A stretch of DNA of 64,000 nucleotides. Source: a virus. This document shows positions 14,038 through 59,413 of this stretch, one piece after another. The stretch lies in IMG/VR virus record IMGVR_UViG_3300028394_000001, positions 96,001 to 160,000 of that record, one strand, 5' to 3'. Both the position numbers and the translations under genes were made by a program. Each line of letters opens with the position of its first letter. Position 1 is the stretch's first letter. The notes beneath the pieces are model-generated. The model saw only the letters and a list, made by a program, of their open reading frames with translations. It had not been told where the DNA came from and ran no database searches.

Positions 14038-14802
14038 ATGGCAAGCAATAGAAAAACAGCAATACAAAAACGTGATGATTCAATTGAAGGTGATGAGGTA
14101 ACACACAGACACCAACCCGTTTCAAACTCACTAAAAATAAAATTAGACCATTTAAAAACATTTGAAGCACTAACACAAAATCAACAAAAGTTCTTTGACG
14201 CATACAAAACAGGTGATTACTTTATTGGCCTATTAGGATCACCAGGTGTAGGTAAAACATTCTTAGCATTGTATCGTGCAATCGAAGAAGTATTAAACAA
14301 GGATAATCCTTTTACACATATTGTAGTTGTTCGTTCCGCTGTACAGGTAAGAGACCAAGGTTTTGTTCCTGGTACATTGGATGAAAAGATGGAGATTTAT
14401 GAAGTGCCTTACAAAGAAATTTGTGAGACACTTTTTGGTCGTTCTGATGCATGGGAAAGATTAAAGGAACAAGGTTACGCTAGATTCATTTCAACTACCG
14501 CTATTCGTGGTATCTCTATTGACAACTCTATCATTATTGTAGATGAATGCCAGTCAATGACATTTCATGAATTGAGTTCGGTTATCTCCCGTGTTGGCCA
14601 TCGTTCAAAGATTATATTTGTTGGTGACCTGAAACAGAATGACCTAATTAAGAGTAAACATGATATATCGGGCCTTGCTGAGTTTTTGAATGTTGCAAGA
14701 CATATGGATGAGTTTACTGAAATTTTATTTACACCAAACGACATTGTTCGCAGCAGTTTGGTCAAATCATGGATTGTTGCCTGCGATAAATTAGGAATAT
14801 AA
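14038..14802 (+). CDS. phoH: PhoH-like ATPase
   Basis: GSPGVGKT, GFVPG, RGISIDNSIIIVDECQ, GDLKQND, DIVRS. Confidence 0.9.
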   Translation: MASNRKTAIQKRDDSIEGDEVTHRHQPVSNSLKIKLDHLKTFEALTQNQQKFFDAYKTGDYFIGLLGSPGVGKTFLALYRAIEEVLNKDNPFTHIVVVRSAVQVRDQGFVPGTLDEKMEIYEVPYKEICETLFGRSDAWERLKEQGYARFISTTAIRGISIDNSIIIVDECQSMTFHELSSVISRVGHRSKIIFVGDLKQNDLIKSKHDISGLAEFLNVARHMDEFTEILFTPNDIVRSSLVKSWIVACDKLGI

Positions 14803-15398
14803 TGATTGATGATGTGTTATGTATTGAAGGTATCTTTGATGATCCGCAAGAAATTATAAATTTGGCGAAGAAACAAAGATACTATTCTTGTGAAGATAAT
14901 CCTACAGTAAAAAATACAAATATCAAGTATAGTGGTGAGAGAACCGACCATTTAGCCAACATATTGAGTGATGGTGAATACTATGAATTAACTAAGAAAA
15001 TCATAAGTAAAATATTCAAAAATGTACCATCGTCAAATATAAAGGCTCAAATTATTTGTTTGTTTCACTATCTAACTGAAATGGACATACCGAACAGTTC
15101 TTGGATACACAAAGATACATCATTGTATTCTGGTGTGATATATTTAAGTGAAGGTTTCAATGATAAATATAATAACCATGGTACCAAAATAATCATAGGC
15201 CGTGACGTTTTAAATTACCGCAATGAATTCAATAAGTTAATCCTATATCGTGGAGACTACTCACATTCGGCTAATTTTGGTTTTGGTCAAACTATAGATA
15301 ATTCAAGACTAACATTAAATTTCTTCATAAATGAAATAATGATTGATATGAAAAATGAAAATAAGGTAAAAGAGAAATACTATGATTACAAAACATGA
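14802..15398 (+). CDS. 2OG-Fe(II) oxygenase (HxD type, DUF6445-like)
   Basis: WIHKD...SGVIYL...FNKLILYRG..SHS...SRLTLNFF. Confidence 0.75.
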   Translation: MIDDVLCIEGIFDDPQEIINLAKKQRYYSCEDNPTVKNTNIKYSGERTDHLANILSDGEYYELTKKIISKIFKNVPSSNIKAQIICLFHYLTEMDIPNSSWIHKDTSLYSGVIYLSEGFNDKYNNHGTKIIIGRDVLNYRNEFNKLILYRGDYSHSANFGFGQTIDNSRLTLNFFINEIMIDMKNENKVKEKYYDYKT

Positions 15399-15966
15399 AT
15401 GGTGGTCAACACCTGTTTGGGAGATTGAAACAGGATTTGATGAATATTTTAATTTGTGTTTTAGAAATGAATTACTTGATTTGATTTGTGCAAGTGAACA
15501 TAACAAATATGTCGATATTTGGACAGTAGATTCCGACTATTGCAGACAATTGAAGAATAAAATATATGAAATGATGGATTTAATTTTACCTGAATATTTT
15601 TCAAACTACCACGAATCAAAACCCTTTATATCAAATGGATGGGTGAATCAGCAAAAACCAGGACAATCATTTCCACTACACAGTCATGGTGAAAGTGTGG
15701 TGGCTTGCGTGTATTATATAGAAACTTATGAGAATAGTGGTGACCTTCTGATAGTAGATCCAAGGGGTTCTGTTGTTTGGGATTTGAATGTTGAGAATGG
15801 TGTAAACTCAGTAAAATATAAAAGAATTACACCAAAGGCAGGTAAAATGGTCTTATTTCCATCGTATCTATTACATTCAGTTGAAGAAAATAAGTCAGAA
15901 AAAACAAGATTTGGCATTGCTACAAATATACATATTCCCACGAAACACTATATAAATGACAGATAA
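15382..15966 (+). CDS. 2OG-Fe(II) oxygenase (TIGR02466-like)
   Basis: WVN...HSH...VYYI...DPRG...FPSYLLHSVEEN...R. Confidence 0.85.
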   Translation: MITKHEWWSTPVWEIETGFDEYFNLCFRNELLDLICASEHNKYVDIWTVDSDYCRQLKNKIYEMMDLILPEYFSNYHESKPFISNGWVNQQKPGQSFPLHSHGESVVACVYYIETYENSGDLLIVDPRGSVVWDLNVENGVNSVKYKRITPKAGKMVLFPSYLLHSVEENKSEKTRFGIATNIHIPTKHYINDR

Positions 15967-15969
15967 ATA
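15963..15969 (+). promoter_or_regulatory. putative late promoter (ATAAATA) for the Cys-rich gene
   Basis: Same element precedes gp48 (33390), gp25 (39432), gp8 (45601) and 59454 (59416). Confidence 0.5.
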
Positions 15970-15993
15970 GACCATATCTTCGGAGAACAAAAA

Positions 15994-16395
15994 ATGACAT
16001 TACCAAACACATCTCAAGGAATATCTTTTCAAAATATAAGAGATGAAACGGGCCAACCTGCGGGTTTTTCCGCATCTATGCAATGGGTCAAGGACAACAG
16101 CAAACTCACAAAAGGCGGCGCCACTGGTGTTATTAATGACATGGGATCCCTACGCGATAAGGCATATTATAGAGATAATACTTCAGGCAATTGTAGTAAT
16201 GGTAATTGTACATCTAATTGTAATTGCGGTAATAAAAATTGCAGTAATTGTATTATTACTGGCACCGTAAATTGTGCAAATTGCGATGCTTCGGCTTTTA
16301 TCCAACCGAATTGTAATTGCAATTGTACATATAATTGTACCACTTCGTCAACATCTTTTAACTGTGATTGTTGGATCTGTGCTTGTACTTGGTAA
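15994..16395 (+). CDS. Asn-Cys-rich protein: putative rSAM substrate/RiPP-like precursor with a fibre-tip anchor-like N-terminus
   Basis: 16 Cys in residues 67-131, 13 as NC; ends CWICACTW; immediately upstream of the rSAM/SPASM gene; SD GGAG. Confidence 0.75.
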   Translation: MTLPNTSQGISFQNIRDETGQPAGFSASMQWVKDNSKLTKGGATGVINDMGSLRDKAYYRDNTSGNCSNGNCTSNCNCGNKNCSNCIITGTVNCANCDASAFIQPNCNCNCTYNCTTSSTSFNCDCWICACTW

Positions 16396-16416
16396 TTTAA
16401 TAAACTAGGAAAAAAT

Positions 16417-17901
16417 ATGATTTTTGAAATTAATGCGGAGCGTAGTGCTTCAGACGTAAAGACTTTTTATTATGATAATGAAAAAAATATACTTTCAGAT
16501 TCTACTGGATTTGTTTATGAGTATCCGGAACCACAGATTCCACAACCCGTAACAGGTACAGGCTTGGAGTTATTCCATAAATGTGAAGAGGTTAAACCCT
16601 TTGATAAAAATACTCCACTAAAAAAATCAAAAGATGTTACTGTCATTAAAATCCAATTAGGTTTATCATGCAACTACTCTTGTGATTACTGCTCACAAAG
16701 GTTTGTTGAAAGGCCACCAGAAACTAGTAAAAAGGATATTGAATCTTTCATCTCTAAGTTGGATAATCTAAACATTACAGAAAAAGCTGGACTAAGAGTT
16801 GAATTTTGGGGTGGTGAACCACTTGTCTATTGGAAAACATTAAAACCTCTCGCTGAAACAATTGCTGAGAAATTTTCTCATTGGAAAAAGAAACCATCTT
16901 TTGGCATGGTGACTAATGGATCACTATTGACAAGAGAAATATGTTCTTGGTTATATTATATGGGTTTTGGTGTTGGTATTAGTCATGATGGTCCAGGTCA
17001 ACATGCTCGTGGTCCTGATCCATTTGAAGATCCAGAAAAAAAGAAAATCATCTTAGAGTTTTATAAAGTAATGCATTCCCAAAATCGTATTAGTTTTAAT
17101 TCTATGATGAATAGAAAGAATACTAGCCGCAAACAAATCCATGATTGGTTTGTTAATTTAACAGGTGATCCTACTGTTCCAATTGGTGAGGGTGGTTTTA
17201 TTGATGCATATGATGAAGCCGCTATCAATAGTTCATTAGAAACAAAACAAGAACATTTTGAATACCGAAGAAATGCATTTAATGATATTTATAGTACAGA
17301 TAATACAGATGAACAAATTAATTTTGGTATTATTAATGACAAAACAGACATGTTTGTTCGTGGTGTTTTGAATCACACTGAATCTAAATTTGTTGGTCAA
17401 AAATGCGGAATGGACAACGAAGGAACAATTTCTGTAGACCTCAAAGGTAACATCACAACTTGCCAAAATGTTTCTATAATGGAAACCAGTAAAAACGGTG
17501 AGTCACACTTAGGTGGTAACTTAGATGATTACGAAAATGTTGAACTGAAATCTGTTACTCATTGGATGAACCGAGCAGGTTGTAAGGATTGTCCTGTGTT
17601 GCATTTATGTAAAGGTTCTTGTATGTACCTTGACGGTAAATTTTGGGATATAACTTGCAATAATGCTTATAGTGATAATGTTGTTTTCTTTGCTTTAGCT
17701 CTGGAAAGAATTACAAATGGTTACATACCAACTAAAATTAAAGGTGATGGATTAGCTTTAGAAAGACAAGACATTTGGGGAACACTATATGAACACAAAG
17801 AAGTTGAAAAGAAAAAAATGATACCAATTAAAATTATAGCAGAAAAAATTGGTATGTTAAATGATGTTGAAATTTACGGACAATCAAGAGTAGAGGCATA
17901 A
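16417..17901 (+). CDS. radical SAM/SPASM peptide maturase
   Basis: CNYSCDYC (CX3CX2C), WGGEP, VTNG, SHDG; SPASM KCG...GNITTC...CKDCPVLHLCKGSC...C. Confidence 0.9.
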   Translation: MIFEINAERSASDVKTFYYDNEKNILSDSTGFVYEYPEPQIPQPVTGTGLELFHKCEEVKPFDKNTPLKKSKDVTVIKIQLGLSCNYSCDYCSQRFVERPPETSKKDIESFISKLDNLNITEKAGLRVEFWGGEPLVYWKTLKPLAETIAEKFSHWKKKPSFGMVTNGSLLTREICSWLYYMGFGVGISHDGPGQHARGPDPFEDPEKKKIILEFYKVMHSQNRISFNSMMNRKNTSRKQIHDWFVNLTGDPTVPIGEGGFIDAYDEAAINSSLETKQEHFEYRRNAFNDIYSTDNTDEQINFGIINDKTDMFVRGVLNHTESKFVGQKCGMDNEGTISVDLKGNITTCQNVSIMETSKNGESHLGGNLDDYENVELKSVTHWMNRAGCKDCPVLHLCKGSCMYLDGKFWDITCNNAYSDNVVFFALALERITNGYIPTKIKGDGLALERQDIWGTLYEHKEVEKKKMIPIKIIAEKIGMLNDVEIYGQSRVEA

Positions 17902-17902
17902 A

Positions 17903-18538
17903 ATGAAAGTTACAATCACACAAGAATTGCAGAATTGCATTAACCTTTTAAATTCTATTCCTGCTGTAAAATCAGTTGCAGTATCTGAAGCTTCAGACAT
18001 TATTAAATCACAAATTAAAAATGTAGACTCTTTCGTATTCAGTTTAACTAACGAGATGGGTAATACAATTAAATATATTATTCCTAAAAATGCGATTATT
18101 CGTGCAACAACTCATCCAGTGGAAGATTTTATGGATATTGTTAATGTTATAACACAAAGACTACAATTCTTAGATGAAAATACGAATCCAGATTGGATTG
18201 AACCTTGTTATTATAATAATATCGAAACAACTAGAGTTGAAGTGGTCAGAGAAGATATAGCACCAATTGCCGCAAATACTGAATTGCAATTATTAGTGAA
18301 TAGTTTGGAGGATCTACCTGGACTATTTAATGTTAATGTTTATTCATTAACATCAGGCAATGCCGATAGTGTATTTTTTACTTGTGATATTATTGAACAT
18401 CCTCGAGGTGGAAAAATTAATTTTGTGGTGCCTTTTAGTACATGCACAAATCTCGAAATGCATTCACAACTGATTGATAATGCAAATGAGTTATTCGAAC
18501 AAGCAAAAACAGGAAATACAACAACTAGTCAATCTTAA
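17903..18538 (+). CDS. orphan protein with an internal two-fold repeat
   Basis: ELQNCINLLNSIPAVKSV...KYIIP vs ELQLLVNSLEDLPGLFNV...NFVVP. Confidence 0.65.
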   Translation: MKVTITQELQNCINLLNSIPAVKSVAVSEASDIIKSQIKNVDSFVFSLTNEMGNTIKYIIPKNAIIRATTHPVEDFMDIVNVITQRLQFLDENTNPDWIEPCYYNNIETTRVEVVREDIAPIAANTELQLLVNSLEDLPGLFNVNVYSLTSGNADSVFFTCDIIEHPRGGKINFVVPFSTCTNLEMHSQLIDNANELFEQAKTGNTTTSQS

Positions 18539-18544
18539 AATATT

Positions 18545-19201
18545 ATGAGAATCGAGAATATTTTTGGTTATAACATAACAAGAATACAATGTACAAATGA
18601 ATCTCTCTATAGAGATAATGAAATAACCAAAACGGTTAACAATGTATTTAATTTTCCAAAAGTTCAAAGTAGAGATAGAACACTCAAGGGAGATTCTCAT
18701 AAAGGTGCAGGTCTAACCACGGTTAGTGAATCATACCTTTCTTTAGTAAATCTACCGGGTTTTGGTAATTTAACTGAATGGATTACACAGCAATTTTTAT
18801 TGGCAAAAGAACCTTTGGGGCTTGACAATAAAGGAAATATCGTGTATTATAAGAGAAGTTGGGCAAATAGGTTATTTCGTGGCGGCCATGGATTATGCCA
18901 TAATCACAATAAAGTGGATAACTATATTGCGAGTCTTACGGATTATACAAATGAAAATTTTAGACCAGATGCTGTTGGTATTTTTTATCTTGATGTGCCG
19001 GAAGCTTCATCAAATTTAGTCATAGTTAAAGATGGCAAACCTGAGACTTGGATTGATGATTATGTAGAAGAAGATACTCATTGGATACAACCAATAGAAG
19101 GAGAGTTATTAATACACTCTCCTGATGTATATCATGCTGTGAGTGTTCATCACAATAATTTACCTCGTAATGTTTTTGTTTTTGATATTGAATATGTTTA
19201 A
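18545..19201 (+). CDS. 2OG-Fe(II) oxygenase
   Basis: SWAN...HNH...GIFYL...EGELLIH...YHAV...R.VFVFD. Confidence 0.75.
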   Translation: MRIENIFGYNITRIQCTNESLYRDNEITKTVNNVFNFPKVQSRDRTLKGDSHKGAGLTTVSESYLSLVNLPGFGNLTEWITQQFLLAKEPLGLDNKGNIVYYKRSWANRLFRGGHGLCHNHNKVDNYIASLTDYTNENFRPDAVGIFYLDVPEASSNLVIVKDGKPETWIDDYVEEDTHWIQPIEGELLIHSPDVYHAVSVHHNNLPRNVFVFDIEYV

Positions 19202-19718
19202 AAAGAATCTTTTTGCAACACCAATTTGGCAAAGAATATTGCCAATTGAATTGAACAATGGATTATTAGAAGAATCTACTCAATTTGATGGTAATATATT
19301 TGATATGAACCTAACATATACAAATAAACTAAAAAACATTATTAGAGAATTATACATCAACATCAACTATGAATACATACTTGAAGAACGCACAATTCAT
19401 GGTAGACTGAATATAATAAATTATGGAGAAAATGATACACCACACAGTCACATAGGTAAATCACTTTTAGTTGGTGTCTATTATTTGGATGTTGAGATTG
19501 ATACGGGTGACCTTTTGTTACACGATCCCAGAGGTGGTGTTGTTTGGGATAATTTAGATTTTGAACCGAATGACCCTATAAAAGGAAAAACTTCCAGAAC
19601 TTATCATAGAATTAAACCTGTAAACGGATTATTAATTATGTTTCCTGGATATTTGGTACATTCAGTAGAAAACAATATGAATAAAAAACCAAGAAAGTCG
19701 ATAGTTATTAACATATGA
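19194..19718 (+). CDS. 2OG-Fe(II) oxygenase (TIGR02466-like)
   Basis: ATG at 19194; PHSH...GVYYL...DPRG...FPGYLVHSVENN...RKSI. Confidence 0.85.
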   Translation: MFKKNLFATPIWQRILPIELNNGLLEESTQFDGNIFDMNLTYTNKLKNIIRELYININYEYILEERTIHGRLNIINYGENDTPHSHIGKSLLVGVYYLDVEIDTGDLLLHDPRGGVVWDNLDFEPNDPIKGKTSRTYHRIKPVNGLLIMFPGYLVHSVENNMNKKPRKSIVINI

Positions 19719-21235
19719 AATATACAATATTGGGTGGCGGAAGTGCTGGTTGGTTAACTGCATTGTTCATTAGAAAAATTTGTCCAGATGATGAGGTAAC
19801 TGTCATTGCTAGCTCCGAAATTGGAATTTTAGGTGCAGGTGAAGGCACTACACCTCAATTTCCTATGTTTCTTAAAAAGATTGATATATCGGTTCATGAT
19901 ATAATTAAAAACGCTAAAGGAACATTTAAGAATGGAATTAAATTTACTAATTGGAATGGAGATGGTGAACATTACTATCATAACTTTCAAGATTCATTAG
20001 TAAATTTCGAAGATTACAAACACATTGATGTTAATCCCTATGCTTTAAATAACATTTCAAACCATGAAAATTTAGATAGCTTGAATTTTACTCCACTCAT
20101 ATCTGAAAAAAATAAAGTAAAATATATAAAATCTAATGATAAAGAATGTGGATCGGATGCGTTACATTTTGATGCAAATTTATTAGCCAAATATTTTCAA
20201 ACTGTTGGTTTAGAAAGAAATATTAAACTTGTTGATGATGAAGTTATTTCTGTTGATTCAAAGGACAATAAGATTGTTGGATTTAATTTAAAATCAAATA
20301 ATAAGATAGATACGGATTTTGTTTTTGATTGTTCTGGTTTTAAAAGATTTCTAATTGGTGGCCACTACAAAGGTAAATGGAATTCTTATAATGACCATTT
20401 ACCAATGAAACGAGCGATGCCTTTCTTTGTTCAGAACGACACTAAAGAGATTCCACCATACACAGAAAGTATTGCTATGAAGTATGGTTGGGTTTGGAAG
20501 ATTCCGGTACAAGGTCGATTTGGTTGTGGTTATGTGTTTGATTCGGATTTGGTGTCTGATGAAGAAATCAAAAAAGAGTTGGAGGAATATTTTGGACATG
20601 AAATTATAAGTCCAAGAACATTCACTTTTAATCCAGGTTGTTTTGAAGAGGTGTGTATAGGTAACTGTATTGCTATTGGTTTATCAGCCGCTTTTATTGA
20701 ACCACTTGAAGCGACAAGCATATGGGTTACCATTATGCAATTGACTGAATTTGAAGCGAATAAAAACAAAATCTTAAACGACTCTGGTGATTCTATTGAA
20801 TCATATAATCAAACTATTAAGGCAATAAACAGAGACATTTTAAACTTTATACAATTACACTATTTAACTAATCGTAATGATAGTGTTTTTTGGAATACTT
20901 TTAAAGTAAAAAACAAGGTATTACCGCAAATAGAAGGTCTTAAAGAATTGTGTCAAGATAAAATTCCAGAATCTCACAATTTAAAATACCTTACATTAAC
21001 AGAAAATATTAACATAGGTTGTTCGCGTAGTAACCATCGGGGTATTTTTTCCGAAACAAGTTGGCATCAAGTTGGTGCCGGCATAAAATTCTTTAAAGAA
21101 GATATTGCAAGAAAAGTTTTGGATACTGAATATCCAAATTTTAAAAATGAGGTTATATTTCAGGACTTTTTTGAAAAAAATAGTGAACTGTTATATGACC
21201 ATTACGATTACATAGAGAAATTAAAAAATGTTTAA
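19715..21235 (+). CDS. flavin-dependent tryptophan halogenase (PrnA/RebH family)
   Basis: GGGSAGW, GAGEGT, catalytic K in TFKNGIKF, GWVWKIP (WxWxIP), FIEPLEATS. Confidence 0.9.
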   Translation: MKYTILGGGSAGWLTALFIRKICPDDEVTVIASSEIGILGAGEGTTPQFPMFLKKIDISVHDIIKNAKGTFKNGIKFTNWNGDGEHYYHNFQDSLVNFEDYKHIDVNPYALNNISNHENLDSLNFTPLISEKNKVKYIKSNDKECGSDALHFDANLLAKYFQTVGLERNIKLVDDEVISVDSKDNKIVGFNLKSNNKIDTDFVFDCSGFKRFLIGGHYKGKWNSYNDHLPMKRAMPFFVQNDTKEIPPYTESIAMKYGWVWKIPVQGRFGCGYVFDSDLVSDEEIKKELEEYFGHEIISPRTFTFNPGCFEEVCIGNCIAIGLSAAFIEPLEATSIWVTIMQLTEFEANKNKILNDSGDSIESYNQTIKAINRDILNFIQLHYLTNRNDSVFWNTFKVKNKVLPQIEGLKELCQDKIPESHNLKYLTLTENINIGCSRSNHRGIFSETSWHQVGAGIKFFKEDIARKVLDTEYPNFKNEVIFQDFFEKNSELLYDHYDYIEKLKNV

Positions 21236-22023: not shown

Positions 22024-22121
22024 AACACTATAGAAGATTAGATAATATCAAATCTCAGGGCTGGTACACCAGATTACTCTAGGGAAACCTAAAAGTGCAG
22101 ATAGACCGTATAGTGTTTTTT
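22024..22121 (+). ncRNA. unknown structured RNA 2
   Basis: Closing stem AACACTATA/TATAGTGTT; hairpins AGATT..AATCT, CTGG-taca-CCAG, TAGG-GAAA-CCTA; U-run after. Confidence 0.55.
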
Positions 22122-22440
22122 ATTGCTGTATGAAGCAAAGAGAAAAGTGTTCTGGACGGGGGTGCGAATCCCCCCAGGTCCACCATAAGGATTGTAATGA
22201 AAGAAAAAATATTAACTGCTATTGAAATGATTGCAGAGTTCCTAAAAGGAATAGCACAATCTTTATGATGGGCCTGCATAGTTTCGACAGGGCAAAGAGT
22301 AACAGAGTGGACAGCACGGTAGGCGATGACCGTTAATCAAGCAAAAAACGTAAATGCAAACGACTCCGCATATCGCCTAGCTGCTTAAGCTAAGCTGAGG
22401 TTTCGCCGACTGTCCTTATTATCCAATCAGTCGGCAATTT
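22122..22440 (+). ncRNA. ssrA: circularly permuted (two-piece) tmRNA
   Basis: Acceptor piece: T-arm GGGGG-TGCGAAT-CCCCC plus CAGGTCC-A-CCA ending 22185. Coding piece starts GGGCCTG at 22270 (G3:U70 pair), then TTTCGAC. Helix 2 CAGGGCA/TGTTCTG. Tag 22356-22388 = ANDSAYRLAA*. Outer ends approximate. Confidence 0.92.
22197..22268 (+). CDS. 23-aa amphipathic peptide in the tmRNA intervening segment (MKEKILTAIEMIAEFLKGIAQSL)
   Basis: SD AAGGA 22187-22191, ATG 22197, TGA ending 2 nt before the tmRNA 5' G. Confidence 0.5.
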   Translation: MKEKILTAIEMIAEFLKGIAQSL

Positions 22441-22461
22441 GTTCAACAAAAGGAGAAAATT

Positions 22462-22905
22462 TTGATTAAAAAACTCGTACTTATCGCATCCCTTATGGGT
22501 GTATTTGCAAGCGCACAGGCTTTAGAAGTTGGTATCAATGATGGTACTAATCTTAGCTCAACGCAAAATGTTTGGGGTGTTACAGTAGGTGAAACTGTGA
22601 AAGGTTATAACTTAACCGCAGGCTTCAATCGTTCTACAACTGCCGACTCTTATAGTTTGGTAAATGCTGTAGAGGTAGCAAAATTTGGACCTGTATCACT
22701 TGATGCTAAATTTGGTGCTGTCTTTGTTGACAGTCAATCAGGTTCAGCTTATGATGGTTATGCCGCTACGGTTGGTGTCGGTGCTCGTATGCCTATCACT
22801 AAATCAGTTTCAGCAGGCCTTGATTACAGTTACCAAGCTGGTCAAGACCGTGTTGTTGCAGAAAACGGTAGCCGTATCACTGCTGGCGTTAAATTTAGTT
22901 TCTAA
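22462..22905 (+). CDS. outer-membrane beta-barrel protein (OmpA/OmpX/Ail-like)
   Basis: SD AAGGAG plus TTG; signal peptide ending AQA; amphipathic strands; C-terminal AGVKFSF beta-signal. Confidence 0.8.
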   Translation: MIKKLVLIASLMGVFASAQALEVGINDGTNLSSTQNVWGVTVGETVKGYNLTAGFNRSTTADSYSLVNAVEVAKFGPVSLDAKFGAVFVDSQSGSAYDGYAATVGVGARMPITKSVSAGLDYSYQAGQDRVVAENGSRITAGVKFSF

Positions 22906-54241: not shown

Positions 54242-57200
54242 ATGGCAAATACAGTTAATATTTTAGGCTACGCCAACACATTTGGTGATTGGATCGTTGC
54301 AACTAATGCAGGTTCCAATGAAATCAATTCTATTGGTAAATACGATTGGACCAAAGATTCTGGCACATTGACTTTAAATGGTACAGGTACTGCTTTAACT
54401 GTTGCTAATAATGTCATTGTTGCAGGTCAATTACTGGTTACAGGTACAGCTTCTTCAGCAACTATCGACAATAATTTAACTGTAGGTAAACAAGTATATT
54501 TTACAAACACTACACAAAGCTTGGTTGCAAGTGGTTCTGTTACTGCAAATGGTACAGTTTATGCTAGCAATACAGGAACAAGTTTAGCCGTTGCAAACAA
54601 TACTACAATTGGAGGTTCTTTAACGGTAGGTGGTGTAACATTAATCTCAAATACATTAACTGTTACTAAATCAACAGTTCTTCAAAATACTTTGAGTGTT
54701 GGTAAAGACACAATAATTACAGGTAATTTAAATGCAACATTAGAAACTTATACTAACTTATTAGTATCTAATACGGCTATCAGAGCAGCAGTTTTATCAG
54801 TTCTTGGTACCACTTATACTAACACACTTCAGGCCAATACAAACATTTTAACTGGGGTAATTCAATCTAACACTTCAGTAAATACCGCAACACTATCTGT
54901 AACAGGCACATCCTTTACAGATAAACTACAATCTAACACCGCAGTTAATACTGCCACAATATCCGTTACTGGTGCAAGTTTTACCAATACTTTACAAGCT
55001 AACACCGCCGTAAATACAGCCACGTCTTCAGTAACAGGCGCAAGTTTTACCAATACTTTACAAGCTAACACCGCTGTAAATACAGCCACACTATCTGTTA
55101 CCAATATTTCATATACCGATAAACTACAAGCTAATGCCGTTGTAAATACTGCGACTTCTTCGGTGACAGGTATTTCTTACACAGATAAGTTACAATCTAA
55201 TACAGCAGTTAATACTGCCACAATATCCGTTACTGGTGCAAGTTTTACTAACACACTTCAATCTAATACGGCAGTTAATACTGCGACTTCTTCAGTGACT
55301 GGTATTTCTCATACTGATAGATTACAAGCTAATAGTTCAGTTAATACGGCTACAATATCTGTTACTAATATTTCTCACACAGATAGATTACAGGCTAATA
55401 GTTCAGTAAATACCGCAACACTATCTGTTACCAATATTTCTCATATCGATAAAGTGCAAGCTAATAGCGTTGTAAATACAGCCACATTATCTGTTACCAA
55501 CATTGCTTATACTGATAAGTTACAAGCTAATAGTGTTGTAAATACCGCCACACTATCGGTCACAGGTGTTTCGTATACTAACACACTTCAGGCCAATACG
55601 AATGTTTTAACTGGAGTAATTCAGTCTAATACTGCTGTTAATACGGCTACAATATCTGTTACTAATATTTCTCATACAGATAGATTACAGGCTAATAGTT
55701 CAGTTAATACTGCTATTTTATCTGTTACCAATATTTCTCATATCGATAAAGTACAAGCTAATAGCGTTGTTAATACAGCCACATTATCGGTTACCAATAT
55801 TTCGTTTACAGATAAGTTACAGGCTAATAGCGTTGTAAATACAGCCACATTATCTGTTACTAACATTGCTTATACCGATAAGTTACAAGCTAATAGCGTT
55901 GTAAATACAGCCACATTATCCGTGGTTGGCAATACTTGGACTAATAGAGTTCAAGCTAATGCTTCCGTAAATACAGCCACATTATCCGTGGTTGGCAATA
56001 CTTGGACTAATGCATTACAAGCTAACGCGACAGTTAATACGGTTACAATGTCTGTGGTTGGCACTAGTTACACAGGATATTTGCAATCTAATAATACTGT
56101 AAACACTACTACAATTTCAGCAACAGGAAATACATATACTAGTTATCTTATTGCAAATAATGATATTTCTGTATCTAAACTGTATGTTACGAGTACACTT
56201 CTTTCGGCAACAAATGCTGTAGGTGCATTCCAATCTCTAACAACATCGGCCGGTTTGACTGTTGGTGGTACGTTTACAATTAACGGAACAACAGTTTATA
56301 CAACAAATAATTTTGTAATAAACGCAAACACTTATACACCAATCACAAGTTATTTTAGTGTTAATAGGGGTACTGCAAATAATCAACCCACTGGTATTCC
56401 AAATGCAAATGCATCCATTCGTTGGAACGAATCAAACAAATATTGGGATATTTTAGATTCAAATAATGGCATTTACTATTCGCAAATTATGACTGCGAAT
56501 ATGATTTCTGATAGTGCAACATCTACAAGTATTTCAACTGTTCCAACAAGTAAAATTTCAACCGCAATTTATGCTCATGCGAACGCGGCCTTTGAGCAAG
56601 CTAATGTAGCAATACCAGCTAGCTCGTATGCTAACTCAGCTTACCTGCAAGCTAATTCAGCCTATGTGTCACAGAATACAACCGGTCAATATGCTAACTC
56701 GGCCTATGGTGTATCCAATTCAGCTAGTTCGTATGCTAATTCAGCTTACCGTGGCGCAAATTCAGCCAGTTCGTATGCTAATTCAGCATTTATTACTGCT
56801 AACAATGCTTTAGCTAATGTTGGTTCCATGGTTACGTCTAATAGCAGTACCATGTATACTTTTGCCAACAATTCGGCATCCACTTCGAATGTCACAGGTT
56901 CCGTTGTTATTGCGGGCGGCCTTGGTGTAGGTGGTAGTGTATACACTGGCAATGTTGTGATTAGAGGTTCTGGTAATGGTATTACCTTTGTTGATGGTTC
57001 GGTTCAATTCACAGCAGGTTCACCTGCAGCATCTGTATATGCTAATGCCGGTTTTGCACAGGCTAATACAGGTACTCTAAATGCAGCGTCAGCCAGTTCA
57101 TACGCTAATGGTGCATTCTTAGTAGCTAATACAGGTACTTTAAATGCTGCAGCAGGAAGTTCATATGCCAACTCAGCTTATGGTGTAGCTAATAATGCAT

Positions 57201-59413
57201 TGGCTAATACTGGCACATCAGTAACAGCTAACAGCTTAACAGTATACACTTTCTCAAATGCAACAGCATCTTCTTCAAACACAACTGGTGCTGTTGTTAT
57301 TGCAGGCGGTCTTGGTGTAAGTGGCAGTGTGTATTCTGGTAATGTTGTTATTAGAGGTACTGGCAATGGTATCACCTTTACTGATGGTTCAGTTCAATTT
57401 ACGGCAGGTTCACCTGCAGCATCCGTATATGCTAATGCCGCTTTTGCTGCAGCTAATACAGGTACTTTAAATGCAGCATCAGCCAGTTCATATGCTAATT
57501 CAGGTTACCGTGATGCAAATTCAGCCAGTACCTATGCCAACTCTGCATTTGCTGGAGCTAATACAAGTACTCTAAATGCGGCTTCTGCTAGTTCTTATGC
57601 TAATTCAGGATACCGTGATGCCAATTCAGCTAGTTCATATGCTAACTCTGCTTTTGCTGGAGCTAATACAAGTACTCTAAATGCGGCTTCTGCTAGTTCT
57701 TATGCTAACTCTGCATTTGGTATTGCTAATACATCCATTTTAAATGCTGCATCTGCTAGTTCCTATGCTAATGGTGCATTTGCTAGAGCTAATACAACTG
57801 GCCTTTACGCTAATGCTGCGTATGTACAAGCTAATACAGGTACATTAAATGCTGCATCTGCTAGTTCCTATGCTAACTCTGCATATGGTAAAGCAAATAC
57901 TGCACTAACCACTGCGGGTGGTCAAATCATAGGTGATTTGGGTATTACTGGTAGTTTAACTGTTAATGGTCCATTAACTTACATAAATGTTGCAACATAC
58001 CAAACAGTCGATTCTCTAATTGAATTAGCTGCAAACAATTTAGGAGATGTGGTTGATATTGGTTTTTATGGCCAATATGTAAACTCAGGTACAAAATATA
58101 CAGGACTAGTAAGAACAGCTTCGAGTGATTGGACTCTATTCCAAGGAATAACAACGAATCCAACAAGTAATAGCATTGGTGCTATATCGTTTGCAAATTA
58201 TGGAACATTAAACACAAATATTGCTGCAGGACAAATAACCAGTTCACAGGCAATTCCGGTTGCTTCCGGTGGTACTGGCGTCAAAACATCTACAGGATCA
58301 GGTTCAGTTGTATTGAGTGCTTCACCTTCATTAACATCACCTTCATTTACAGGCAACATTGGTGGTGATATTGGATTTAATGGCGTAGGGGTATCTCAGT
58401 GGAATCTTACTCTTGGTAAAACAGTTACAGGTACGAACACGGGTGGTGGTATATTGGCGCAAGGAACCGCCGGTGGTGGTATGACTGGTTGGTATACAAG
58501 TTTCTATAGTAATATAAACACCGCCGCCGGTTTACTTATGGATAACGCTTATCATTTCATAGCCGGAAGTGTAGCTGCAGGTGGTGGAAGTGTTGTATCT
58601 AATACTACGGGTTTATATATTTCCGATTTGTCCACAGGAACAGTATCTAATCACGGTATTAAAGGACTTGTTTCAGCTGGCGCAGGTAAATATAATCTAT
58701 ATCTCTCAGGAACCGCAGACAATTATTTACAAGGCAACGTAGCAATTGGTGGAACAACACCTGCGTCTGCTCCTAAATTGTCTTTATATGGCAGTATGCG
58801 ATTCTTGACTAATCAAGCGCCATCTGCAACTTATACAGGTATTGGTTCTGTTAGAACTGATGAAGTTTCTATATCTACATCAGGCAACGAAAGATTTAGA
58901 ATTACCTCTACCGGCGCAGTATATTTTGGAACAAATGGAAATGGTAGTGGAAGTGTTAATCCTGATAATATATTCCAAAGTGATTTAACGAACACGGTCC
59001 AGAATGCAACTTCAGGTATATTTCATCGAATAAACGGAGCAGATAGGCTCGTTACAGCTAATGCAGGTGTAACTGCTACAGGTGTCCTAACAGCTACAGG
59101 TAACGTCGTTGCATTCTCTGACATAAAGCTTAAAACAAATATAACAAATATTGATAATGCATTGCAAAAAACTTTACAATTGCGTGGTGTTTATTACAAC
59201 AAAAAAGACGATATTGAAACGAAAAAGGTCGGTGTAATTGCACAAGAAGTTTTAGAAGTATTGCCTGAAGTTGTAATGTCACATGTGGATCAGACAACGA
59301 AAGAAGAAACACTAACTGTTGACTATGGTAATATAGTAGGATTGTTAATCGAGGCTATTAAAGAATTGAACGAAGAAGTTCAATACTTAAAATCAAAAAT
59401 ACCAAACCAATAA
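54242..59413 (+). CDS. long tail fibre with a C-terminal peptidase S74 intramolecular chaperone
   Basis: NTF..W...TN N-terminus; repeat shaft; FSDIKLK.NI...LRGV...GVIAQEV..VLPEVV...VDYGN.VGLLIEAIKEL. Confidence 0.88.
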   Translation: MANTVNILGYANTFGDWIVATNAGSNEINSIGKYDWTKDSGTLTLNGTGTALTVANNVIVAGQLLVTGTASSATIDNNLTVGKQVYFTNTTQSLVASGSVTANGTVYASNTGTSLAVANNTTIGGSLTVGGVTLISNTLTVTKSTVLQNTLSVGKDTIITGNLNATLETYTNLLVSNTAIRAAVLSVLGTTYTNTLQANTNILTGVIQSNTSVNTATLSVTGTSFTDKLQSNTAVNTATISVTGASFTNTLQANTAVNTATSSVTGASFTNTLQANTAVNTATLSVTNISYTDKLQANAVVNTATSSVTGISYTDKLQSNTAVNTATISVTGASFTNTLQSNTAVNTATSSVTGISHTDRLQANSSVNTATISVTNISHTDRLQANSSVNTATLSVTNISHIDKVQANSVVNTATLSVTNIAYTDKLQANSVVNTATLSVTGVSYTNTLQANTNVLTGVIQSNTAVNTATISVTNISHTDRLQANSSVNTAILSVTNISHIDKVQANSVVNTATLSVTNISFTDKLQANSVVNTATLSVTNIAYTDKLQANSVVNTATLSVVGNTWTNRVQANASVNTATLSVVGNTWTNALQANATVNTVTMSVVGTSYTGYLQSNNTVNTTTISATGNTYTSYLIANNDISVSKLYVTSTLLSATNAVGAFQSLTTSAGLTVGGTFTINGTTVYTTNNFVINANTYTPITSYFSVNRGTANNQPTGIPNANASIRWNESNKYWDILDSNNGIYYSQIMTANMISDSATSTSISTVPTSKISTAIYAHANAAFEQANVAIPASSYANSAYLQANSAYVSQNTTGQYANSAYGVSNSASSYANSAYRGANSASSYANSAFITANNALANVGSMVTSNSSTMYTFANNSASTSNVTGSVVIAGGLGVGGSVYTGNVVIRGSGNGITFVDGSVQFTAGSPAASVYANAGFAQANTGTLNAASASSYANGAFLVANTGTLNAAAGSSYANSAYGVANNALANTGTSVTANSLTVYTFSNATASSSNTTGAVVIAGGLGVSGSVYSGNVVIRGTGNGITFTDGSVQFTAGSPAASVYANAAFAAANTGTLNAASASSYANSGYRDANSASTYANSAFAGANTSTLNAASASSYANSGYRDANSASSYANSAFAGANTSTLNAASASSYANSAFGIANTSILNAASASSYANGAFARANTTGLYANAAYVQANTGTLNAASASSYANSAYGKANTALTTAGGQIIGDLGITGSLTVNGPLTYINVATYQTVDSLIELAANNLGDVVDIGFYGQYVNSGTKYTGLVRTASSDWTLFQGITTNPTSNSIGAISFANYGTLNTNIAAGQITSSQAIPVASGGTGVKTSTGSGSVVLSASPSLTSPSFTGNIGGDIGFNGVGVSQWNLTLGKTVTGTNTGGGILAQGTAGGGMTGWYTSFYSNINTAAGLLMDNAYHFIAGSVAAGGGSVVSNTTGLYISDLSTGTVSNHGIKGLVSAGAGKYNLYLSGTADNYLQGNVAIGGTTPASAPKLSLYGSMRFLTNQAPSATYTGIGSVRTDEVSISTSGNERFRITSTGAVYFGTNGNGSGSVNPDNIFQSDLTNTVQNATSGIFHRINGADRLVTANAGVTATGVLTATGNVVAFSDIKLKTNITNIDNALQKTLQLRGVYYNKKDDIETKKVGVIAQEVLEVLPEVVMSHVDQTTKEETLTVDYGNIVGLLIEAIKELNEEVQYLKSKIPNQ
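54790..56130 (+). repeat. ~20 tandem 66-bp (22-aa) coding repeats LQANSVVNTATLSVTNISYTDK
   Basis: Directly visible in protein and DNA; boundaries approximate. Confidence 0.85.

Follow-up and report, generated by a model that had tools for sequence, protein, structure and literature searches.

Several described systems resemble parts of the locus analyzed here. In the QhpD/QhpC/QhpG system, a radical S-adenosylmethionine (rSAM) enzyme staples a small Cys-rich subunit that remains part of a bigger complex, after which the Trp of the subunit is modified by a flavoenzyme. Both NxxcA and freyrasin are known to contain C-beta thioethers to Asn or Asp (PMC8326336). In the T-even phages T2, T6, and S16, the cleaved C-terminus of the fibre gp37 is capped by the small protein gp38, which combines an attachment part with variable distal domains (PMC3157838, PMC12032242). 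Iyer et al. interpreted the oxygenase–halogenase arrays of cyanophages as metabolite pathways and, in bacterial operons, proposed tail-collar proteins as oxygenase substrates (PMC2938197). In this study, we analyzed an island of eight genes in a 64,000-nucleotide stretch of virus DNA (the window; positions 96,001 to 160,000 of IMG/VR record IMGVR_UViG_3300028394_000001), which is part of the complete 170.5-kb genome of a T4-like freshwater phage. The island encodes a 133-residue protein rich in Asn-Cys pairs, an rSAM enzyme with a SPASM domain, putative 2-oxoglutarate (2OG)-Fe(II) oxygenases, and a flavin-dependent halogenase. From comparison of sequences, we consider it likely that the island represents an allele of a tail-fibre-tip locus whose content can be swapped and that its enzymes tailor the Asn-Cys protein at the tip.

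All eight open reading frames (ORFs) of the island were present on the + strand between phoH and a Cas4-like exonuclease gene. From phoH to the exonuclease, the intergenic gaps were, in order, -1, -17, +27, +21, +1, +6, -11, -4, and -8 nt, and the tight coupling described in the original prediction was confirmed (-17 to +27 nt inside the island). The island is AT-richer than the genome, with a GC content of 0.317 versus 0.372. The island, its flanks, and the fibre gene of the window are arranged as follows:

14038..14802, + strand: phoH (PF02562), left flank of the insertion hotspot
14802..15398, + strand: DUF6445-like putative 2OG-Fe(II) oxygenase (HxD...H...R), an accessory gene upstream of the late promoter
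15382..15966, + strand: TIGR02466-like 2OG-Fe(II) oxygenase (HxH...H...R; PF13759, 67.5 bits; phrog_81)
15963..15969, + strand: T4-type late-promoter motif ATAAATA, 24 nt upstream of the Asn-Cys gene
15994..16395, + strand: 133-residue Asn-Cys protein, the candidate substrate (cap, residues 1-60; Asn-Cys tract, residues 65-133)
16417..17901, + strand: rSAM/SPASM enzyme (phrog_1802), core of the system
17903..18538, + strand: unassigned protein of two tandem alpha/beta domains, the conserved partner of the rSAM enzyme
18545..19201, + strand: 2OG-Fe(II) oxygenase (HxH...H...R; phrog_81, E = 8e-11)
19191..19718, + strand: TIGR02466-like 2OG-Fe(II) oxygenase (HxH...H...R; PF13759, 52.2 bits)
19715..21235, + strand: enzyme of the flavin-dependent Trp-halogenase family, from a clade specific to cassettes; no other halogenase is encoded in the genome
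21228..21893, + strand: Cas4-like exonuclease (phrog_298), right flank of the hotspot
54242..59413, + strand: 1723-residue tail fibre with a C-terminal Peptidase_S74 chaperone and PHROG tail-fibre matches, the sole S74 fibre of the genome

The closest enzymatic parallels are NxxcB/NxxcA, PapB/freyrasin, and CteB/SCIFF, in which a seven-Cys SPASM rSAM enzyme likewise stands beside a Cys-rich, Asn/Asp-rich ribosomal substrate. The enzyme of the window differs from these ranthipeptide maturases in scoring far below their curated cut-offs (PapB 77.8 vs. 340; SCIFF 45.4 vs. 425). Its substrate shows Asn-Cys adjacency rather than NxxC or CX3D spacing and carries a predicted fibre-docking cap or is itself a fibre. 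Neither a protease or transporter nor a match to the recognition element (RRE) of peptides made on the ribosome and modified after translation (RiPPs) was seen, and the PDB profile matches of the rSAM enzyme begin after the RRE of CteB. The combination of an rSAM enzyme, a Cys-rich protein, and a flavoenzyme resembles QhpD, and weak hidden Markov model matches were obtained (TIGR03906, 73 bits; NF049967, E = 0.003). These are far below the cut-off, the flavoenzyme here keeps halogenase motifs, and the product would belong to the virion rather than serve as a redox cofactor. The likeness to gp37/gp38 of T2 and T6 is one of position: the Asn-Cys gene lies at most three genes behind an S74 fibre gene in 14 of 90 homologous loci. 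The fibre of the window weakly matches S16 gp37 (6F45, E = 0.15). Unlike gp38, which has a polyglycine sandwich as its distal domain and needs no dedicated modifying enzymes, the protein of the window ends in an Asn-Cys tract; its gene is not directly behind the fibre gene, and its homology is clear only to uncharacterised caps behind S74 fibres. By analogy, the system would work like ranthipeptide- or QhpD-type maturation applied at a gp38-like position, while standing outside the ranthipeptide families by its scores and its lack of a protease and exporter, and outside gp38 by its lack of a polyglycine domain. The same enzyme families occur in the halogenase/2OG arrays of T4-like aquatic phages (Syn9, VirX1, PrnA-like; PMC2938197, PMC3037559). 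Those arrays were read as metabolic and have no assigned substrate, whereas the halogenase of the window belongs to a separate clade and has a candidate protein substrate beside it. In the literature covered, which took in few subscription papers, no description was found of an rSAM–fibre pairing or of rSAM/halogenase/oxygenase tailoring of a virion protein.

The original prediction of a complete rSAM/SPASM enzyme holds: CxxxCxxC is found at residues 85-92, GGEP at 132, and the seven SPASM Cys at 330, 349, 389, 392, 398, 402, and 414, and TIGR04085 scores above its cut-off. The family has at least 2,679 relatives (clusters) at E<=1e-30. It extends over T4-like, lambdoid, Ackermannviridae, and jumbo phages and siphophage prophages, and cultured carriers include JWF, 2-1, RSP15, RP12, and prophages of cultured freshwater Betaproteobacteria. 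Linkage was scored in 312 rSAM loci from viral contigs, metagenomes, and bacterial genomes, representing 154 clusters at 90%. The original prediction had proposed such a neighbourhood survey and would have been contradicted by homologs that usually lack a Cys-rich ORF; an Asn-Cys gene was found within 4.5 kb of the rSAM gene in 98 of the 102 clusters with flanks. Two of the four exceptions (RSP15 and L284) are detection misses or short tails, L176 is a fibre region with unresolved ORF calling, and L026 is taken up below. In the reverse direction, DNA was scanned by pattern for encoded NCNCNC without use of the rSAM, and at least 2.5 kb downstream was required. An rSAM gene of this family adjoined all 31 C-terminal NCNCNC tails with such room and none of the 17 matches with room that were internal or due to chance; another two rSAM loci were not classified because their ORF start was unclear. 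The pairing is near-obligate in both directions, and on this linkage the rSAM enzyme very probably acts on the Asn-Cys tract. In the jumbo Ralstonia phage RP12 (L011:3864-10128), a 65-residue Asn-Cys-tailed ORF overlooked by the existing annotation precedes three radical SAM genes, in a neighbourhood of virion genes.

The protein of the window, correctly described beforehand as a 16-Cys protein directly upstream of the rSAM gene (gap +21 nt), has Asn directly before 13 of its Cys and carries Trp127 and Trp133. This number of Asn-before-Cys pairs was reached in 0 of 100,000 shuffles of the core. In the AlphaFold model, the cap had a predicted local distance difference test (pLDDT) score of about 82, and that of the tract was low. 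No PDB match was obtained with this model in Foldseek and VIA searches, and Pfam, NCBIfam, and PHROG held no family for the protein. A tblastn search against cultured phages was empty, probably owing to low-complexity masking. The cap profile matched the N-termini of proteins encoded behind S74 fibres in cultured phages with a probability of 98.6 (E = 6e-16; reversed control, 0.5), and in 7 of 8 of these phages the matching domain was encoded directly behind the fibre. The genome has no second cap, and its sole S74 fibre shares its tip motif with the fibres upstream of cap genes. A complex prediction for the fibre-tip trimer with the cap scored 0.02, gave no answer, and was not used as evidence.

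Fusions and expression signals point in the same direction. Homologues of the window type either have a free end or run on into an S74 chaperone (PF13884), a Hint domain, or a domain starting with SKIIC, and some have an inserted Gly-rich domain. A polyglycine receptor-binding domain is present in the homologues L003 and L004 and absent from the window protein. Within the tail module of prophages, JWF, 2-1, and RSP15, a tail fibre itself ends with the tract, and the rSAM gene follows one to three genes later; the candidate proteins are gp028 in JWF and gp048 in RSP15. A prophage of Polynucleobacter sp. JS-Safj-400b-B2 carries a gene of the window type behind its fibre gene. Prophages of Limnohabitans and other Betaproteobacteria, JWF, and 2-1 share the order central fibre J, side fibre ending in an Asn-Cys tract, partner, often a 2OG gene, and rSAM; in RSP15, the side fibre has a short terminal tract, with the rSAM gene three genes further on. 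The late-promoter motif ATAAATA is also found upstream of some dozen virion genes in the genome. In T4-like loci, it stood before 36 of 40 homologues, compared with 50 of the 772 remaining genes, and no 2OG or halogenase gene had it. A scan for sigma-70 promoters and terminators gave matches at chance level. We are fairly confident, on these grounds, that the 133-residue protein is a part of the virion. The RiPP framing of the original prediction was not supported, and a virion fibre-tip protein, with its folded cap and fibre fusions, fits better than a precursor with a cleavable leader. The SKIIC domain, of 170 residues, follows the tract in L160:3025-3930 and in 35 clusters, at the place where others have S74 or Hint; it had no Pfam or PHROG match and is possibly a third self-cleaving or chaperone module.

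We propose the following explanation. The 133-residue protein would be made late, and its N-terminal cap would dock on the tip of the long fibre (54242-59413), like the T-even gp38 adhesin, after self-cleavage of the S74 chaperone of the fibre. The Asn-Cys tract would be displayed where ordinary caps carry a Gly-rich receptor-binding domain. In the cytoplasm, the rSAM/SPASM enzyme and its partner at 17903 would modify the tract. The leading candidate reaction is thioether stapling from Cys-S to the C-beta of Asn or Asp, as in NxxcB or PapB, to which we give slightly less than an even chance; it would rigidify the tip without disulfides. Lineage-specific enzymes would then decorate the tract; in this phage they would be 2OG oxygenases and a halogenase acting on the terminal Trp. 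Whether the tip protein has a role in host recognition appears evenly balanced. More tentatively, RiPP-like receptor-binding tips could be widespread, with a thioether-stapled Asn-Cys scaffold and interchangeable tailoring by Trp halogenases, 2OG hydroxylases, B12-type rSAM enzymes, or a PP-loop enzyme. It is routine to class the halogenases and 2OG oxygenases of phages as auxiliary metabolic genes with no known substrate, and the island and its counterparts (cassettes) name a candidate and a specific residue. If this wider reading is true, these abundant enzymes gain a virion-protein substrate, and a phage could shift its host range through an exchange of chemistry and not of sequence alone. 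The cultured carriers and the prophages of cultured Betaproteobacteria make the question testable now.

The original prediction had also read the block as an insertion at the phoH/exonuclease junction, which is borne out by the empty site of the closest relatives: where PhoH is 96-97% identical, phoH directly abuts the exonuclease gene (gap -1). Among 46 distinct phoH relatives with both flanks, the two genes abutted in 17 and were separated by other inserts in 29. The rSAM and the substrate were both absent from three near-complete relatives. Because several inserts consist of cap plus Gly-rich genes or gp53-like fibre genes, we believe that the junction is a hotspot for swappable fibre-tip modules. 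At the same junction, arrays of small fibre-like genes were observed in the close relatives L412, L416, L434, L440, L441, and L449, some of them followed by a conserved protein of 92-99 residues.

The halogenase at 19715 is of the PrnA type with intact motifs, as first described (PF04820, 311 bits; Rossmann motif, WxWxIP, Lys72, and Glu329 kept). It was present in 23 of 114 clusters. The predicted tie to Trp-tailed substrates was found as an association: of the 24 clusters in which the mature substrate has Trp at its end or next to it, 23 had a halogenase, compared with 0 of the 89 others. In a search from the halogenase side, every rSAM-linked match with an intact substrate gene had a Trp tail, and no halogenase occurred in three complete genomes whose substrates have non-Trp tails. 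The halogenases of the cassettes group in a single clade of 30 rows (SH-aLRT 95), of which the sole non-cassette member is a cut contig. The family profile is missing about 45-65 residues of the substrate-binding region seen in 5HY5, which is suggestive only, and 6QGM was among the structure matches. L284 was considered as a halogenase without Trp and rejected, being a degenerate match without WxWxIP; the Fisher test of halogenase against Trp (p = 8e-22) was likewise discounted as evidence on account of shared ancestry. We lean slightly toward halogenation of the terminal Trp of the substrate by this enzyme. A sister halogenase clade stands directly behind an S74 fibre and a cap plus Gly-rich protein, without rSAM, in L343, L346, L361, L362, and L385, and from this clade tip-protein halogenation may be more general than the cassettes.

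The claim of four 2OG oxygenases was retained for three of them (15382, 18545, and 19191), which have family scores and a facial triad with a distal Arg and use HxH rather than HxD; TIGR02466 was just below its cut-off, and PF13759 was below its own for 18545 (22.8 bits). The protein at 14802 has a weak, sub-threshold match to DUF6445 (PF20043, 22.5 bits vs. a cut-off of 24), its HxD...H...R rests on a pattern, and it occurs in a minority of cassette loci. The TIGR02466-like family was found near the rSAM in 98 of 154 clusters. The idea that oxygenases and halogenase form a fixed set was not supported; they are lineage-specific accessories, and other lineages have other enzymes. It is an even question whether the oxygenases act on the Asn-Cys protein; the Asn/Asp hydroxylation put forward in the original prediction is plausible. 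The eighth gene, 17903, had been left uninterpreted. Its family lies directly behind the rSAM in 29 of the 30 loci that have it, and it is a tandem of a domain found singly in the Gly-Gly-tailed clade (hhalign 98.6%). Its model had a pLDDT of 90 and showed no clear fold match (best Z 5.8) and no PqqD or winged-helix match, and an Atlas feature search for it was blank. SKIIC tails travel with two further protein families. The Gly- or Gly-Gly-tailed loci L003, L006, L056, L106, L158, L162, and L270 carry a PP-loop (SGGxDS) asparagine-synthetase-like protein, a 245-residue protein, and a cupin, without a halogenase; C-terminal activation chemistry is a possible role of this set. A second radical SAM protein of about 505 residues, B12-type in appearance, was seen in L007:9231-10748, L008:12067-13599, L126, and L292 and not in the window; often found with Trp-containing tails, it is a candidate methyltransferase.

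Several observations weigh against the proposed explanation. The Asn-Cys gene is 38 kb from the fibre gene in this genome, and its product shows no more than weak homology to T-even gp38 itself (BFVD matches to gp38-domain proteins, E 2-3). L026, on a 12%-complete contig, has an rSAM gene without a nearby substrate, and in L243 no halogenase lies near the Trp-tailed substrate. Two oxygenase genes are upstream of the late promoter. On the rSAM tree, the halogenase–Trp link comes down to two changes with one supported independent pair, that is, one or two independent events; with so few changes, the association does not reach significance and is no more than suggestive. Aquatic phages that lack this rSAM also commonly carry halogenases and members of this 2OG family. 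The conserved unit of the tract is Asn directly before Cys (71%), not NxxC (37%, which the NC alternation itself yields in part of the tract), and Asp at +4 (CX3D) occurs for 8% of the tract Cys, so known ranthipeptide registers fit poorly. Given this dominant register, epimerization or other chemistry with metal- or disulfide-bound Cys is a rival to the thioether. Such chemistry, on the same virion-tip substrate, would have the Cys as metal ligands or post-lysis disulfides and the rSAM enzyme epimerizing or oxidizing residues in a polytheonamide- or anSME-like manner. The strict Asn-Cys alternation agrees with it, as do the PDB profile matches to anSME and the epimerase YydG beside CteB. S74 fusions imply trimers, in which CxC from three chains could bind metals after the model of the HxH sites of T4 gp37. 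The B12-type rSAM of some cassettes and the 2OG accessories call polytheonamide tailoring to mind. We regard this alternative as somewhat unlikely: the best NCBIfam scores are those of Cys-rich thioether maturases, though against PapB, CteB, QhpD, CcpM, and the other curated models all are far below the cut-offs (83.8 bits at best vs. 340-500), and Cys is preceded by Asn, Asp, or Ala, of which Asn and Asp are known C-beta acceptors (PMC8326336).

The system might instead be limited to the Asn-Cys protein, the rSAM, and the rSAM partner, with the halogenase and oxygenases as ordinary auxiliary genes that share the hotspot and have metabolites or other proteins as targets. The cyanophage arrays without this rSAM (PMC2938197, PMC3037559), the 2OG genes at the same junction in relatives without the cassette, and the few halogenase–Trp events favour this. 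We consider it unlikely, as this halogenase clade occurs only in cassettes, which themselves lie in unrelated genome contexts, a 2OG gene lies between fibre and rSAM even in lambdoid prophages, and the accessory set follows the tail type (Trp with halogenase; Gly-Gly with PP-loop protein plus cupin; SKIIC with two other families). Late expression would equally fit a fibre-assembly chaperone or other non-virion helper matured by the rSAM, and genes behind fibres can encode chaperones of the T4 gp38 type (PMC12032242). This is improbable when the tract is the covalent C-terminus of a fibre in prophages, JWF, and RSP15. The least credible reading is a classical RiPP, in which the leader is removed and the core is freed at lysis as a bioactive peptide. 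The RiPP-like enzyme set and the 60-residue N-terminal region before a Cys-rich core recall one, but the "leader" is a folded domain common to fibre-tip proteins and the core is fused to fibres elsewhere. As already stated in the original prediction, the block has no protease or transporter, and no leader peptidase or exporter was found among the eight genes or the recurring neighbour families.

Just 3' of the exonuclease gene, at window positions 22076-22479, a permuted (two-piece) transfer-messenger RNA of betaproteobacterial type was observed. It gives a hint of the host, in line with the Burkholderiales prophage relatives.

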